Shown here in pieces: positions 34,478-40,140 of a DNA stretch of 64,000 nt. A program made the translations under genes and the position numbers. The notes beneath the pieces are model-generated. The model saw nothing but the letters and a program-made list of their open reading frames with translations. It was not told the DNA's origin and ran no database searches. Location of the stretch: assembly GCA_963668625.2 (NCBI GenBank), contig CAXXKA010000006.1, positions 544,001-608,000 on the forward strand, written 5' to 3'. Within the stretch, counting starts at the first letter, position 1. The number at the start of each line of letters is the position of its first letter. Origin of the DNA: an uncultured candidate division Zixibacteria bacterium (GTDB lineage Bacteria; Zixibacteria; MSB-5A5; UBA10806; 4484-95).

Positions 34478-34891
34478 TTCTGCATTTATTGTTCTGCCTT
34501 CTTTGAAACTTATTATATGATTTTACATAGAGGTTATTAGTGTGCCTTAAATAAGGAGTTGTGGCTTTAATAGAAAGAAGCCGTCGGGAAAGGATTCCCA
34601 ACGGCTCATCGAAAAGGAGAAATCGATATAACAATACCAACCGAACAATATCACTTGACATGATACATAGCAGGATTCCCACCACCTCAAGTAAAAACGT
34701 TGGCATATTTCATTTTTCCGTGTTGTCAGGAATCCTTTCCTGACAAAATACTGCATCAATACAGATAGCGGGAAAGGATTCCCACCACCTCAAGTAAAAA
34801 TGTTGGCATATTTCATTTTTCTGCAATTTTTATTTTACCTTCTTTGAAACTTATTATATGATTTTACATAGAGTTTATTAGTGTGTCTTAA
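34478..34891. repeat. Compound intergenic repeat region: two direct-repeat pairs and three GGAA-AGGA-TTCC hairpins
   Basis: About 34497-34550 repeats at 34838-34891; 34672-34718 repeats at 34775-34821; hairpins at 34579-34606, 34723-34746, 34768-34785. Confidence 0.75.
34611..34673 (+). mobile_element. Isolated right end of the IS110/IS1111 element
   Basis: 62 of 63 nt identical to 38120-38182 and followed by target half-site GATTCCC. Confidence 0.85.
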
Positions 34892-34905
34892 TTGATAGGA
34901 ATACT

Positions 34906-35694: not shown

Positions 35695-36587
35695 GAAGAA
35701 GCTTGATAAAGACAATGGTAGTAGGAATCATCATCTGGGTGGTTTCCGCCTCGTACGGGCATTATGTCACTAAAGCCTCTGTTGGCGTCGATATATTCAA
35801 CGATTTTCAAACCGGTACGTTCGGTTCTATCATAGAGAAACTTTTTCCGGGCAGCCTTGGTATTAAAGCCAAAGCCGTGCTTGTCGTGGATGCCGAGACA
35901 GGGGAGGAGATATATTCGAAAAACGAGGATTACCAGATGCCAATCGCCAGCCTGACCAAGCTTGCCACTGCATTAGTGTTCATGGAATCGGGTACGCCGC
36001 TAACCAACACGATCACGATGAGTGAAGAGGATTTCCCGTCAGTGGGCGGCTCCAAGCTTTACGAGGGGGAACGGATCACGGTTGGCCAATGCCTTCATCT
36101 ATGCCTTATCTGTTCCGATAACGCCGCCGCTAACGCGCTATCTCGATCCGCCGGTATAGAAAAAGGCGAATTCGTGGGCAGGATGAATCAACTGGCAATT
36201 AGGTTGGAGCTATCCAATACCCGCTTTACCGAGCCGACCGGTTTGGATTCGCATAATATGTCAACGCCGGAGGACTATATCAAGCTCATGCAAACCGCTT
36301 TCGCCGAGCCGACAATTCAGAAGATATCCTCGAAGAAGACTTACCAGTTCAGCTCGTTAAACCGTGGGATTCGTCACTCGTTATATAATACCAATCGCTT
36401 GCTTTACACTAAATGGAATGTGATCGGCGGGAAGACAGGGTATATCAGCAAGTCCGGCTACTGCCTGGCCCTGGATGCTTACGATCAAACCGGCAGGCGG
36501 ATTAACGCGGTGATACTCGGCGCGCCTTCGAATCAGTACCGCTACCGGGATGCCAATCGGTTGCTGGCCTATTCCGGGCGGAATTAA
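35691..36587 (+). CDS. Peptidase S11 D-Ala-D-Ala carboxy/endopeptidase (PBP7-like)
   Basis: SLTK (SxxK), SDN (SxN) and KTG motifs; N-terminal hydrophobic segment. Confidence 0.88.
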   Translation: MRRSLIKTMVVGIIIWVVSASYGHYVTKASVGVDIFNDFQTGTFGSIIEKLFPGSLGIKAKAVLVVDAETGEEIYSKNEDYQMPIASLTKLATALVFMESGTPLTNTITMSEEDFPSVGGSKLYEGERITVGQCLHLCLICSDNAAANALSRSAGIEKGEFVGRMNQLAIRLELSNTRFTEPTGLDSHNMSTPEDYIKLMQTAFAEPTIQKISSKKTYQFSSLNRGIRHSLYNTNRLLYTKWNVIGGKTGYISKSGYCLALDAYDQTGRRINAVILGAPSNQYRYRDANRLLAYSGRN

Positions 36588-36827
36588 TAACTTCATAAAA
36601 CAATATCATATTATCTTTCCCCACGCCAGAGGGGTTGTTGAAAAAGCCGTTTGCATGGGTCGCTGGGCGGACGAAGTCCTTTGTTCATTCTTTCCCGGCG
36701 ACATGCCGCATGAAATCAGGTGTCAGGAAAGTAACTATGTTATCAAAAGCTTGAGCCTCAGTCATTCGGATTGTATTGTTATTTTGACAAACATTCAACA
36801 ATCAACACGAACAAACAGGAGGCTCAA

Positions 36828-37886
36828 ATGCCATGTTACAACAAAATCGAGCGTGAAGCCAACACTATTTACGTTGGTATTGACGTTCATAAGCGGAGTT
36901 GGCATGTAACAATGCGAACAACTGAGCAAGAGTTATGGAAAGGCAGTATTGCAGCTGATTGGGAAGTATTGAAAAAAGTATTGGGGCGTTATTCCGATTG
37001 TGACATTTCGGTAGTTTACGAAGCCGGTTTTAGTGGTTTCTGGTTATATGACAAACTGGTAGCCTGGGGAGCGTCATGTATAGTGACTCCGCCGAGTTTG
37101 ATTCCTTCTGAATACGGCAATCGGGTCAAAACTGATCGCCTCGACAGTGCCAAGCTTGCTTTACTACTTTCCCGTAGTATGCTCAAGGCAGTATGGGTAC
37201 CTGATGTCGAAGCGCGTGGTCATCGCCAGGTATTGCGTCGCCGTCGCCAGTTGGTCAGCGACCGGGTCCGTATTCAATGCCGTATCAAGAGTGAGTTAGC
37301 CTGTTTCGGTCTATCTCTGCCGACAATTAGCGGCAAGTGGACGGAGACATTCGAACAGCATTTATGGCAGTTGCGTTTTAGTGATCGCTGGCAGACAGAG
37401 AGTTTTCAGAGGTTACTGACACAGTATCGGCTGGTGAGTGAATTGATTACTCAACAGACACGGTTATTGAAAGAATTGTCAAAACTGGATCGTTATCGGG
37501 AAGCGGTTGAGCGTCTACGTAGTGTTCCGGGCATCGGCTTGTTAACGGCGATGGAACTATTATTGGAGTTAGGGGACTTCAGCCGATTTAGTCGAGGAAG
37601 CCAATTGGCCGCCTACGTGGGCTTGACTCCAAGCCAATATTCCTCCGGTGACAAGGTTCGACTAGGACGAATCACCAGGATCGGCAAACCGCAGTTACGG
37701 TCGAATCTGATCGAAGCCTCCTGGATTTTGATCAGGAAGGATCCGGCCCAGGCTCAGCGTTATCAACAGCTCAAGTGGCGGTGTGGTTCCAAACGAGCCA
37801 TTGTGGCCAGTGCCCGCCGTCTACTGTTAATCGTACGGCGTCTGATGCTTGACCATCAGAGCTATCGAATCCAAACCGCAGCATAA
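36828..37886 (+). CDS. IS110-family DEDD recombinase/transposase
   Basis: YVGIDVHK, YEAG, KTDRLDS (DEDD), SVPGIG, YVGLTP..YSSG catalytic Ser; GGAGG SD before ATG 36828. Confidence 0.95.
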   Translation: MPCYNKIEREANTIYVGIDVHKRSWHVTMRTTEQELWKGSIAADWEVLKKVLGRYSDCDISVVYEAGFSGFWLYDKLVAWGASCIVTPPSLIPSEYGNRVKTDRLDSAKLALLLSRSMLKAVWVPDVEARGHRQVLRRRRQLVSDRVRIQCRIKSELACFGLSLPTISGKWTETFEQHLWQLRFSDRWQTESFQRLLTQYRLVSELITQQTRLLKELSKLDRYREAVERLRSVPGIGLLTAMELLLELGDFSRFSRGSQLAAYVGLTPSQYSSGDKVRLGRITRIGKPQLRSNLIEASWILIRKDPAQAQRYQQLKWRCGSKRAIVASARRLLLIVRRLMLDHQSYRIQTAA

Positions 37887-37919
37887 AAAAGAGATAATTA
37901 GTTTACAATATCTGAGTTT

Positions 37920-38060
37920 GGAGAATGGCGAAGGAATCCTTGTGGCTTAACAACAGACCGCGCAGGAAAGGGTGTCATCTCCCCTGGTAATAATCTCGGA
38001 TTGATTAATTGTGGCTGTGTTTGAGGGCCAGACCACGAATAGCAGGGTGACTATTATCGG
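37920..38060 (+). ncRNA. Predicted bridge/seek RNA (target-binding and donor-binding loops); transcript ends unknown
   Basis: Two similar internal-loop modules; guides AGGAATCCT and CAGGAAAG match the target, ATAGCAG matches the circle junction. Confidence 0.8.
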
Positions 38061-38286
38061 CAATGTCTAACAGTGGCAGCATGTTGTAGTTTAAACATGG
38101 GTATTCTGCGTTTTATTAAGAAAAGGAGAAATCGATATAACAATACTAACCGAACAATATCACTTGACATGATACATAGCAGGATTCCTGACACCGCGAC
38201 TACCTAATCAGGGCTTTTTCAACAAGCCCCAGAGTTCAGGTTTTTAACCCCTGCTCAAATTAAATAATAACAAAAATAGTAGATAA

Positions 38287-38310
38287 AAAAACGGGCGCTA
38301 AGCCCGTTTT
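38287..38310. terminator. Bidirectional terminator
   Basis: AAAACGGGC-GCTAA-GCCCGTTTT. Confidence 0.7.
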
Positions 38311-38329
38311 AGTTCAAAGATTTTAGCGA

Positions 38330-39934
38330 TTAGTATAAATATTCGACATTTACGCCTCGCGCCTCGAGCTGCGGGATATAGGTGTCTTCTGAGATGGTAT
38401 CCAGTGGATTACCTGATAGGCCGACCCAATCGCCACTGCCGAGACCTGAGTTGTTTACCAGTGGCAGAATGTTCGTTATTTGATTCCCAAGTAAGGTAAC
38501 ATTAATCACGCCGGTCATAGTTTCTATAGCGCTTATGTCGACTATGTTGTTGTACTGAAGGCTTAGTTCTGTTACGTTTGTCAAATTAGCTATTGCCGAG
38601 ATATCAGTCAGGGAATCGTCAAATGCATACAAATACTGAAGGTCATACAATGAATCCAGACCGTCGAGACTGGTTATCGGATTGCCGTCAACATGCAGCC
38701 TGCTTAGATTCGACATATTGGCCAGAGGTGTTAAATCAGTTATCAGGTTGTCGCTCATAACTAATTCTGTAATATTAGTCAAGCCACCGATAGGGGATAA
38801 GCTGTTTACCTGATTGTTTTCAATATCCAGTCTTGTTACCCAGGTGCAGGTTGAAAGCCCGGAAATATTGGTGATGGCATTATTTGAAAAATCCCAACTG
38901 GTGACCAGAGTCAGATTATCGAGCGCGGGGATTGAGGCAATCTGATTATCTTTTACACTGATAAATTCTATACTACTGAGGTCCTGAATCGGCGAAATGT
39001 CGGCAATCTGGTTTTCGTACATATAGAAAGTACGTAGCTGAGTCAAGCCGCTAATAGCATCAATGTTACTGATCTGATTATCTTGTATCATTAAAACGGT
39101 CAGGTTGGTCATCTCCTCAACAGCCGCAATACTTGTTATCGTGTTGTGGCCTATATCGAGATAGTCCAGGTTTGCCAGATCGTTAAGAGAAGAGATATCG
39201 CTTATTTGATTTTCTTCTAGCTTGAGCTCGGTCAAAGCGGTCAGCCCGGAAAGCGGGGAGACGCTTGAAATTGAGTTGGTGCTCAGATTAAGGGATTCGA
39301 GATTGAACAAACTATCAAGCGGTGACAGGCTCGTGATATGATTATCATAGATGCTCAATTCTTGCAACGATTCGAAATGTTCCAATCCACCAAGGTCGTA
39401 TATATCGTAGAAATTATCAACGGTAAGTTCGGTGATCGTGTCGACATCCGTGACATAGATAGAATCGTAATAACTCCGACCGTCAATTTGATTGGCCACC
39501 ACTTTCTTGAGATTGGTATCGGCGAACGCCACGTAAGTGCTGTCGAAACTGCGGGTGGAGAATCTCCACATCGTGCCTTCGGTACTATTGCCGTGAATGT
39601 CATGAGGGTCTACCAACCAGTAGTACGTAGTACCGTATTCCAACTGAGTCTGGTAATTAAAGAAAGTGTCTGACATGCTAAAGCGAATATAATGATTCTC
39701 GATTGAGGCCGAATCGGTAGAAAGCGCGAAGTCGTATAGAATATTATCACCATCGGGATCCGAACAGCTCCAATTGAATTGGATCGATAAAAGTTGATTT
39801 GCCGCGCCATCAGCGGGCACAGGGGAGGAGGCCGCGGTCGGCGGATCATTCTCCTCGGATGTATCCGTGCTACTGCTATCACAGTTAATCATCGTTAAGC
39901 ATAAACATAGCAAAAGAGCAATGAAATATTTCAT
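38330..39934 (-). CDS. Internalin-like leucine-rich-repeat lipoprotein
   Basis: Lipoprotein-like signal (TMIN-C), FN3-like segment, about 15 LRRs of 22 aa (L..L.L..N.I.DI..L); ATG 39934 (ORF extends to 39940). Confidence 0.85.
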   Translation of the reverse strand: MKYFIALLLCLCLTMINCDSSSTDTSEENDPPTAASSPVPADGAANQLLSIQFNWSCSDPDGDNILYDFALSTDSASIENHYIRFSMSDTFFNYQTQLEYGTTYYWLVDPHDIHGNSTEGTMWRFSTRSFDSTYVAFADTNLKKVVANQIDGRSYYDSIYVTDVDTITELTVDNFYDIYDLGGLEHFESLQELSIYDNHITSLSPLDSLFNLESLNLSTNSISSVSPLSGLTALTELKLEENQISDISSLNDLANLDYLDIGHNTITSIAAVEEMTNLTVLMIQDNQISNIDAISGLTQLRTFYMYENQIADISPIQDLSSIEFISVKDNQIASIPALDNLTLVTSWDFSNNAITNISGLSTCTWVTRLDIENNQVNSLSPIGGLTNITELVMSDNLITDLTPLANMSNLSRLHVDGNPITSLDGLDSLYDLQYLYAFDDSLTDISAIANLTNVTELSLQYNNIVDISAIETMTGVINVTLLGNQITNILPLVNNSGLGSGDWVGLSGNPLDTISEDTYIPQLEARGVNVEYLY

Positions 39935-40140
39935 TTTCAAAAGTCCTCCTTTTATTGGTGTTACTTAATATTTCGGACAATTGTATAAAAAGTATACCCT
40001 GATTTTCGTAGAATAATGATAAGTATTCTTGATCTGAGGGGATTCAATCGAGGTTTAGTATTCTTAGTCTAGCTAAAACACTAAATCTGACTGCTAGTAT
40101 AGCTGCCTGCTGACATATGAAGGTTTTATATTTTAGTGTA

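Follow-up and report, generated by a model that had tools for sequence, protein, structure and literature searches.

An intact IS1111-group insertion sequence of an uncultured Zixibacteria bacterium and its predicted bridge RNA

The element and its genomic copies

The present study deals with an insertion sequence (IS) in a 64,000-nucleotide (nt) stretch of DNA from an uncultured candidate division Zixibacteria bacterium (contig CAXXKA010000006.1 of assembly GCA_963668625.2, positions 544,001 to 608,000 of the forward strand), which is referred to as the window and on which all coordinates below are counted, features lying on the plus strand unless stated otherwise. The element extends from 36732 to 38182 and measures 1451 bp including one copy of its AG core (38181-82). 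It carries a gene for a transposase of 352 amino acids (36828-37886), bordered by a left non-coding end of 96 nt (36732-36827) and a right one of 296 nt (37887-38182). A sequence-only reading of this DNA had described a complete IS1111-type bridge recombinase whose RNA guides can be read from the letters. The assignment to the IS1111 group of the IS110 family is borne out by Pfam and NCBIfam matches, by the short left and long right end and by short subterminal inverted repeats. Likewise, in the region read (36400-38500), all motifs of both bridge RNA modules were found at the positions given earlier.

The element boundaries are fixed because five genomic copies as well as empty paralogous sites are available for comparison. 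The genome containing the window (4.3 Mb in 10 contigs) was searched for copies and holds five full ones, four of which are identical across the 1432 bp compared. The fifth carries a single change, C to T at 37976, by which the pair G37927-C37976 in the closing stem of RNA module 1 becomes G-U. Every copy starts with TAACTATG, ends with CATAGCAG and has AG directly before it. In the window, the left junction reads CAGGAAAG|TAACTATG (36724-31 and 36732 onward) and the right junction CATAGCAG|GATTCCT (up to 38182 and 38183-89). The AG core is present at both junctions of each of the five, CAGGAAAGGATTCCT stands at the empty paralogous sites, and the transposase reading frame is intact throughout (5/5). 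The element inserts at the AG core without further duplication, and it moved recently; it accounts for five repeats and one remnant in this genome. That it had been called likely active agrees with the five near-identical copies at different sites.

The transposase

The sole long open frame in the region read spans 36771-37886, and translation most likely begins with the ATG at 36828, AGGAGG being found a few bases before it. The protein matches the Pfam families PF01548 (DEDD_Tnp_IS110, 3.8e-16) and PF02371 (Transposase_20, 2.5e-27) as well as the NCBIfam model NF033542 'IS110 family RNA-guided transposase', the latter with 238.1 bits against a cut-off of 140. In an alignment of 12 sequences, comprising the window protein and 11 relatives of 31-76% identity, E65, D103, D106 and G274 do not vary, and D19 varies hardly at all. 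S273-G274 lie within GLTPSQYSSG, in agreement with the motif GL-P----S(t)G published for IS1111-type transposases in the portions available of PMC11187229. Hence, the DEDD and Ser motifs that had been called intact are indeed conserved. By motif position and spacing rather than by structure alignment, D19/E65/D103/D106/S273 correspond to D11/E60/D102/D105/S241 of IS621, as given in the accessible text of PMC11208158.

Against solved structures, the C-terminal domain alone found matches, namely ISCro4 and IS621 (E 4.9e-9 for IS621), and the SG of the transposase aligns to the SG of ISCro4. With 352 amino acids compared to the published 330-350, and with the motif present, the protein may be of the IS1111 type, as judged by motif and length rather than by alignment with named IS1111 transposases. 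In a plasmid collection, 3890 records were matched, all below 60% identity, and among the 25 plasmid matches listed none exceeded 38% identity over most of the protein.

The target site

The left target half with the core, CAGGAA-AG (36724-36731), lies within a hairpin resembling a repetitive extragenic palindromic (REP) sequence, GTGTCAGGAA..TTCCTGACAC, and the right target half, GATTCCT (38183-38189), was read from the sequence and the copy flanks. The resulting insertion consensus, CAGGAA-AG-GATTCCT, places AG in the loop of the REP-like hairpin in all five copies. The flanks CAGGAAAG|GATTCCT are shared by the window copy and the C5 copy, and those of the other three deviate at two to three positions (CAGGAAAG|GATTTTT in C8, AAGAAAG|GATTCCT in C1 and CCGAAAG|GATTCCT in C4), so that natural insertions tolerate 2-3 mismatches far from the core. 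The genome holds 12 empty sites at which the 15-mer CAGGAAAGGATTCCT is uninterrupted; for the target 16-mer, 7 exact sites and 30 sites within 2 mismatches were counted. The landing sites are loops of REP-like hairpins whose stem arms vary in a compensatory manner (ggtgt/acacc, gcagg/cctgc, ggtgg/ccacc), and this repeat family is the landing site of the element.

Members of the REP-like family share an upstream arm (ttcatcctttcccggcgacat..gcatgaaa) holding an inverted target motif (36640-36731 and 38183-38250 in the window, and genome-wide), and a downstream ggctttttcaacaa(g/t)ccc hairpin is often present. The ggctttttcaacaa(g/t)ccc motif also adjoins the insertions of the relatives L107 and L109 in other organisms.

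The two-module bridge RNA

Relatives of the element were gathered from a genome collection (7 loci, 52-77% protein identity) and from metagenomes (22 loci, 37-63%), the closest ones belonging to uncultured Ignavibacteria, Ignavibacteriales and Zixibacteria genomes. A two-module layout is common to their 3' regions, of which 23 distinct ones from homologous elements were aligned with MAFFT. Module 1, the putative target-binding loop (37920-37982), is delimited by RNAalifold and covariation. It is closed by a stem of GGAGAATGGCG (37920-30) and TGTCATCTCC (37973-82), in which 8 of 9 pairs show compensatory changes and a one-base bulge is kept, and it carries a distal hairpin (37941-45/37958-62; TGTGGC at 37941-46, AGACCGCG at 37955-62) followed by GGTG (37971-74), the latter read from the sequence. 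Module 2, the putative donor-binding loop (37984-38060), is delimited by RNAalifold, covariation and duplex energy, and is an exact repeat of the module-1 scaffold (TGTGGC...AGACCNCG-guide-GGTG). Its closing stem is formed by CTGGTAATA (37984-92) and TATTATCGG (38052-60), as supported by duplex energies, its distal hairpin by 38010-17 and 38029-37 (TGTGGC at 38010-15, AGACCACG at 38030-37), and its GGTG, again read from the sequence, lies at 38046-49.

RNAalifold on the 23 sequences recovered the closing stem of module 1 and the hairpin of module 2. Over 23 named pairs in 23 sequences, 93.7% of the cells are paired, compared to 79.4% after shuffling and 30-53% when the partners are slid by 1-3 columns. 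Changes on both sides were observed in 15 of the 23 pairs, and the observed covariation score was reached in none of 500 shuffles. Three G-U pairs are retained in 23/23, 22/22 and 21/23 sequences, which favours an RNA read from this strand. Since the register of the module-2 closing stem varies between the MAFFT rows, this stem was scored by duplex energy, giving a mean of -8.33 kcal/mol for cognate versus -5.70 for non-cognate arms (0/20,000 permutations). A counterpart of the handshake guides of IS621 was looked for in the 2-3 nt after the 3' target guide and rejected, as only L035 and L037 fit and no consistent counterpart emerged.

Target guides and their covariation with the flanks

Within module 1, the predicted 5' target guide, AGGAAUCCU(U) (37932-37941; AGGAATCCT at 37932-40 in DNA letters), is complementary to the top strand (A)AG+GATTCCT and corresponds to the right target guide of IS621. 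The 3' target guide, CAGGAAAG (37963-37970), equals the top strand and is thus complementary to the bottom strand, corresponding to the left target guide of IS621. Such an order, with the guide for the top strand preceding that for the bottom strand in the 5' to 3' direction, is the one given for IS1111 seekRNAs in the portions available of PMC11187229. In the window copy, guide complementarity spans 15-16 bp, so that the 15-bp specified target named in the sequence-only reading is roughly right, the distal mismatches of natural insertions being tolerated. When 256 nt of the non-coding region were subjected to 20,000 dinucleotide-preserving shuffles, the 9-mer match arose in 18, the 8-mer match in 143, both together in 2 and the 7-mer match of the donor in 429 of them.

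Comparison across homologs carries the argument further. For each insertion, the core and the adjoining 8 nt of right flank were taken together, and their reverse complement was searched for freely throughout the non-coding region of the same element. Nine or ten of the 10 positions matched in 17 of 26 insertions, as opposed to 2 of 470 non-cognate pairs, and in 23 of the 26 the best-matching stretch lies immediately next to the (T)GTG of the distal hairpin in module 1. With fixed alignment columns and 20 distinct elements, agreement of the 5' guide with the right flank of its element averaged 6.60 of 8 positions, compared to 3.37 for the flanks of others, and that of the 3' guide with the left flank averaged 4.05 of 6 positions, compared to 1.69. 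Neither value was reached in 100,000 permutations, and the same holds with 10 target-distinct representatives. This fixed-column test left out the four other copies of the window element, the duplicates L112, L124 and L126 (of L111, L123 and L125), four elements with cut flanks (L117, L121, L127, L034) and three without a 3' region (L110, L119, L128); the 3' guides of L115 and L116 stand one position out of register owing to an alignment gap, by which their match is understated.

A covariance model built from the alignment furnished a later set of elements, i.e., hits in other genomes which had not been used in forming the hypothesis. Here, at least 8 of 10 positions matched in 7 of 11 elements, while 8 of 98 non-cognate comparisons reached 8 and none went above; the best match lay at exactly the predicted place in 6 of the 11 and was off by 1-2 nt in 2. 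One genome of this kind, G098, holds four identical copies, all inserted at CCCACCCGCAAG|CGGGTGGGCC and with the loop strands ACCCACCCGCT and TCCGCAAG. Close relatives thus carry different loop sequences matched to different REP-like hairpins, and the target guides covary with the flanks of each element. The module-1 guides proposed at the outset are thereby upheld, in the first set of homologs as well as in the later one. In about 30 relatives, the target guides change along with the target. Regarding the earlier proposal of a reprogrammable recombinase, this natural covariation of guide and target supports that part of the claim and suggests that the enzyme may be reprogrammable.

An explanation at the level of DNA has to be considered at this point, according to which the 3' region matches the flanks as a leftover, e.g., of a captured target site, and not by virtue of RNA guides. 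The target is indeed a common genomic repeat with its 30 sites, and the remnant of a right end lies beside another repeat copy (see below), so that rearrangements between element and repeat do occur. The matching strands, however, are split in opposite senses across a conserved hairpin and occupy the same place in 23 of 26 insertions with differing targets, only an RNA of this strand allows the invariant G-U pairs, and a captured site would not follow new targets in each lineage. We therefore regard a DNA-level leftover as highly improbable and retain the RNA guides as the explanation of the matches.

As a separate observation, L107 and L108 are almost identical elements inserted at sites of one kind, and the guide of L108 mismatches its own flank; this guide change could represent either decay or a step towards a new target.

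Donor guides and the ends of the element

The loop strands of module 2 are likely the donor guides for the ends of the element, judging from their sequence. The 3' donor guide, AUAGCAG (ATAGCAG, 38039-38045), equals the last 7 nt of the element, that is, its right end plus core, whereas the 5' donor guide, UUAAU (TTAAT, 38005-38009), agrees with 4 of 5 positions of the UUACU expected as the complement of AG+TAA at the left end. The full identity of one strand to the circle junction and the partial match of the other, as noted before, were both recovered. Element L121 displays the same C to T change in its guide (AATAGTAG) and its right end (CATAGTAG), and the 5' donor strand shifts in step with the left end in four of five left-end types.

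A different right end, CATAGCGG instead of CATAGCAG, was seen in L035, L117, L159, L162 and L165, in which the donor guide still reads AGCAG. The right junctions of these elements may have a GG core, or the copies may be altered.

Contrary evidence and alternative explanations

Taken together, the indications are in favour of an intact, recently mobile IS1111-group element which is guided by its own bridge RNA, or seekRNA, at an AG core, and we assign this interpretation a probability of about 0.88. A number of results speak against it, starting with the RNA itself. Its folding energy is no better than that of shuffled sequences, neither for the whole non-coding region (z = +0.35) nor for 37917-38067 (z = -0.98, with 33 of 200 shuffles as good). 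As the single-sequence folding energy is not significant, the structure is supported by covariation and not by stability, and the folding proposed as a check came out in favour of the stems by the former measure and without significance by the latter. A scan of 36500-38400 against Rfam 15 with E values up to 10 gave no match in 37887-38182, although Rfam may hold no such family. A promoter scan found no promoter-like site upstream of the RNA on the plus strand; its one site lies on the minus strand, compared to 3.0 expected from shuffles. With no promoter on its own strand before the RNA, co-transcription with the transposase gene followed by processing would fit, as proposed for the RNA of ISEc11 in the accessible text of PMC11187229.

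Concerning the target guides, the palindromic nature of the target makes the two strands partly redundant and hence not fully independent, and the homologs are mutually related, so that the permutation figures overstate independence. The best match of L031 and L114 lies elsewhere in the non-coding region, and that of L118 is shifted by 1 nt. The 5' target guide of L108 differs from its own site at 2 positions (TCAGG to TTGGG). In the later set, the guide matches of L155 and L158 are offset by 1-3 nt, and L165, L172 and L173 (3 of 11 elements) show no match, being weak model hits which seemingly lack module 1. Concerning the donor guides, the 3' strand hardly varies within the family, nor does the right end, and this near-constancy of guide and ends leaves little covariation by which pairing of the donor loop could be judged. 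The TCAC left-end type, represented by three elements, shows no covariation of the 5' donor strand. Finally, A stands at 38008 of the window element where the core G would require C, and C is present in the 13 further homologs whose left end is TAAC.

From the donor side of this evidence, it could be argued that only module 1 guides, as a short seekRNA, and that the protein recognises the ends via the subterminal repeats, module 2 being structural or involved in processing and its match to the right end incidental or conserved for another reason. In keeping with this, the predominant RNA bound to the proteins of IS1111 elements is short, at 82-96 nt, and end recognition may differ between the groups, according to the portions available of PMC11187229. 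The near-invariance of the module-2 3' strand and the right end leaves their match untouched by covariation, the 5' donor strand of the window element reaches only 4 of 5 matches, and a covarying interior repeat near both ends (described below) could serve end recognition at the protein or DNA level. On the other hand, module 2 repeats the module-1 scaffold exactly and its stems covary, L121 has its matched C to T change, the 5' strand follows the left end in most left-end types, and donor loops in IS1111 elements are among the predictions of Durrant et al. (PMC11208160, as far as its accessible text goes). Guidance by module 1 alone therefore appears unlikely to us, and a bispecific RNA with target and donor guides remains the preferred reading.

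The residue at 38008 further invites the suggestion that the element, albeit intact, no longer moves, e.g., owing to the core mismatch in its 5' donor guide, and that the copies are older or testify to old activity. A38008 is unique among the 14 homologs sharing the TAAC left end. In addition, no circle joint and no empty-site contig for the locus was seen in the contigs of three DNA runs, which are a weak test; these runs stem from one sample of one study and are possibly the assembly's own source. In their contigs, the element is collapsed to one piece with a depth of 21-25 (X1, X2) or 3.9 (X3), compared to flank depths of 4.4-8.7 and about 2, respectively, a ratio which agrees with several copies and is uninformative on excision. 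Against a loss of mobility, the five copies at five sites differ by at most one base with an intact frame in each, and all of them carry A38008, which means that the element spread while carrying this guide. The donor guide of IS621, moreover, likewise pairs discontinuously, as described in the portions available of PMC11208160. An element that has ceased to move is accordingly an improbable reading, and recent mobility under RNA guidance is maintained.

Terminal repeats, junction promoter and surrounding features

The left subterminal inverted repeat, CTATGTTATCA (36735-36745), begins 3 nt inside the left end and is the reverse complement of the right one, TGATACATAG (38170-38179, read from the sequence), with one extra T. 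At 10 bp with one extra base, the pair falls within the range of 7-17 bp published for the IS1111 group; it was not among the 25 longest inverted repeats listed. Directly before the right repeat lies an outward-facing -35 hexamer, TTGACA (38164-38169, likewise read from the sequence), and a -10-like hexamer, TATGTT, is found at 36736-36741, so that a promoter would be complete only in the circular form, whose joint would read TTGACA, 17 nt, TATGTT. TTGACA was found in 28 of 28 elements with located ends, a count to be read with the fact that the search pattern itself required TTGACA. The joint may well act as a promoter by analogy, as junction promoters are known in the IS110 family (cited in PMC11208158 and PMC12288879, in the parts available).

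Two further pairings involve the left end. In the 5' untranslated region (UTR), the arms TTGAGCCTC (36751-59) and GAGGCTCAA (36819-27), 9 nt each and 100% complementary, delimit a hairpin (36751-36827) in which the ribosome-binding site of the transposase gene would be base-paired to the beginning of the UTR. Most homologs possess these arms as well, and in L127 the pair is changed yet complementary. An interior inverted repeat with arms of 23 nt and 83% complementarity (36765-36787 and 38132-38154) sits about 30-50 nt inside each end. It covaries in 20 homologs, with a cognate alignment score of 10.8 versus 7.2 (0/20,000 permutations), and could be an extra element for end recognition or RNA processing; the cited IS110/IS1111 bridge RNA literature does not mention it in the portions available. 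Some relatives have its right arm overlapping with the 3' strand of the stem that closes module 2.

Upstream of the element, a solo right-end remnant of 64 bp (34611-34674) is 99% identical to 38120-38182 and is followed by the half-target GATTCCC. The remnant (region 34583-34674) is preceded by an intact target-like hairpin, GCCGTCGGGAAAGGATTCCCAACGGC, and the element sequence breaks at GAAAAG|GAG, which is similar to the left target plus core. It may be the product of off-target recombination or of a deletion. A local duplication of about 340 bp (34500-34900) surrounds the remnant and two further target-like sites, its near-identical stretches being approximately 34500-34560 and 34842-34900 as well as 34674-34720 and 34775-34822. 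Downstream, a terminator-like hairpin (38288-38310, minus strand) follows a convergent leucine-rich-repeat gene (38330-39940, minus strand), and hence the element is located between the 3' ends of two convergent genes.

Distribution of the RNA

In the genome of the window, the covariance model found the RNA only within the five full element copies. Among 150 sampled other genomes of the same phylum, 12 gave matches, all of them from the same class and from other families; 4 genomes of the same family and 6 of the same order gave none. No match was obtained in 17 loci of Solirubrobacterales-type relatives with about 30% protein identity either, which limits the modelled scaffold to the closer clade. 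The ISEc45 locus, in which the long non-coding region lies upstream, was also without a match. That the host belongs to a poorly studied lineage, as had been supposed, is plausible at the level of its inferred class, which has few cultured members.

Proposed mechanism and possible use

Based on these features and on the systems described below, transposition could proceed as follows. The element would leave as a circle in which its right and left ends are joined at the AG core (CATAGC-AG-TAACTATG), and this joint would assemble the TTGACA/TATGTT promoter. The transposase mRNA would extend into the 3' non-coding region, and a bridge RNA (seekRNA) of about 140 nt (37920-38060) would fold as two internal-loop modules on one scaffold, with UUAAU forming an imperfect duplex with the AG-TAA top strand of the left end. 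A recombinase tetramer would then swap strands at the AG core by means of the DEDD residues D19/E65/D103/D106 and the nucleophile S273, and the circle would enter a REP-like hairpin at its loop, duplicating nothing of the target except the shared AG.

The ends, the target, the core and all four predicted guide strands of the element are definable to the base. Orthologues with other cores or guide lengths are sought for genome engineering, and the window element is a candidate in this respect with CAGGAAAGGATTCCT as its target. A more far-reaching view, which we put forward tentatively and with some doubt, is that the clade, comprising the element and its relatives of the same class, might document guide reprogramming as it occurs in nature and might supply bridge recombinases whose specified target is longer than that of IS621.

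Comparison with known systems

The closest parallels are the IS1111 elements ISEc11, ISPa11, ISKpn4 and ISPst6, for which a seekRNA has been demonstrated (Siddiquee et al. 2024, PMC11187229; this and the following comparisons refer to the portions available of the papers cited). They share with the window element the DEDD transposase with GL-P----SG, the subterminal inverted repeats, the long non-coding region 3' of the gene and the guide order, and in both cases there is no obvious internal promoter for the RNA. ISPa11 targets a REP, and the window element likewise targets a folded repeat. In contrast, the host of the window element comes from a different phylum, the best plasmid-borne relatives of its transposase stay below 40% identity, and the likeness is one drawn from descriptions, the RNA being a predicted one here. 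The layout of a long non-coding right end with subterminal inverted repeats has been described for IS1111 elements in both PMC11208160 and PMC11187229, and predictions of a bridge RNA cover 93.0% of IS1111 elements (PMC11208160).

With IS621 (Durrant et al. 2024, PMC11208160; Hiraizumi et al. 2024, PMC11208158; PDB 8wt6), the element shares the layout of a bispecific RNA with two loops, each holding a left and a right guide which both include the core dinucleotide, as well as the composite active site of DEDD plus Ser, a REP target and a circle junction promoter, the RNA and promoter of the window element being predicted ones. IS621 differs in that it belongs to the IS110 group, carries its RNA in the left end, has the reversed guide order and a CT core, and specifies a shorter target. 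ISPpu9 and ISPpu10 of Pseudomonas putida (Pares-Guillen et al. 2025, PMC12288879) are also IS110-family elements inserted into REPs in several copies, with a small-RNA gene downstream of the transposase gene and partial remnants elsewhere. ISPpu9, however, moves in modules, and its Ssr9 RNA is dispensable for transposition; unlike ISPpu9, the window element has its RNA, as far as the covariance model finds it, only in the full copies. The proposed mechanism is the bridge RNA/seekRNA mechanism published in 2024, the current understanding of which is unchanged by the window element. The element is therefore a new example and not a new kind of system, namely an IS1111-type bridge recombinase, as predicted, from a source other than the Proteobacteria, the group that served to elucidate the system.

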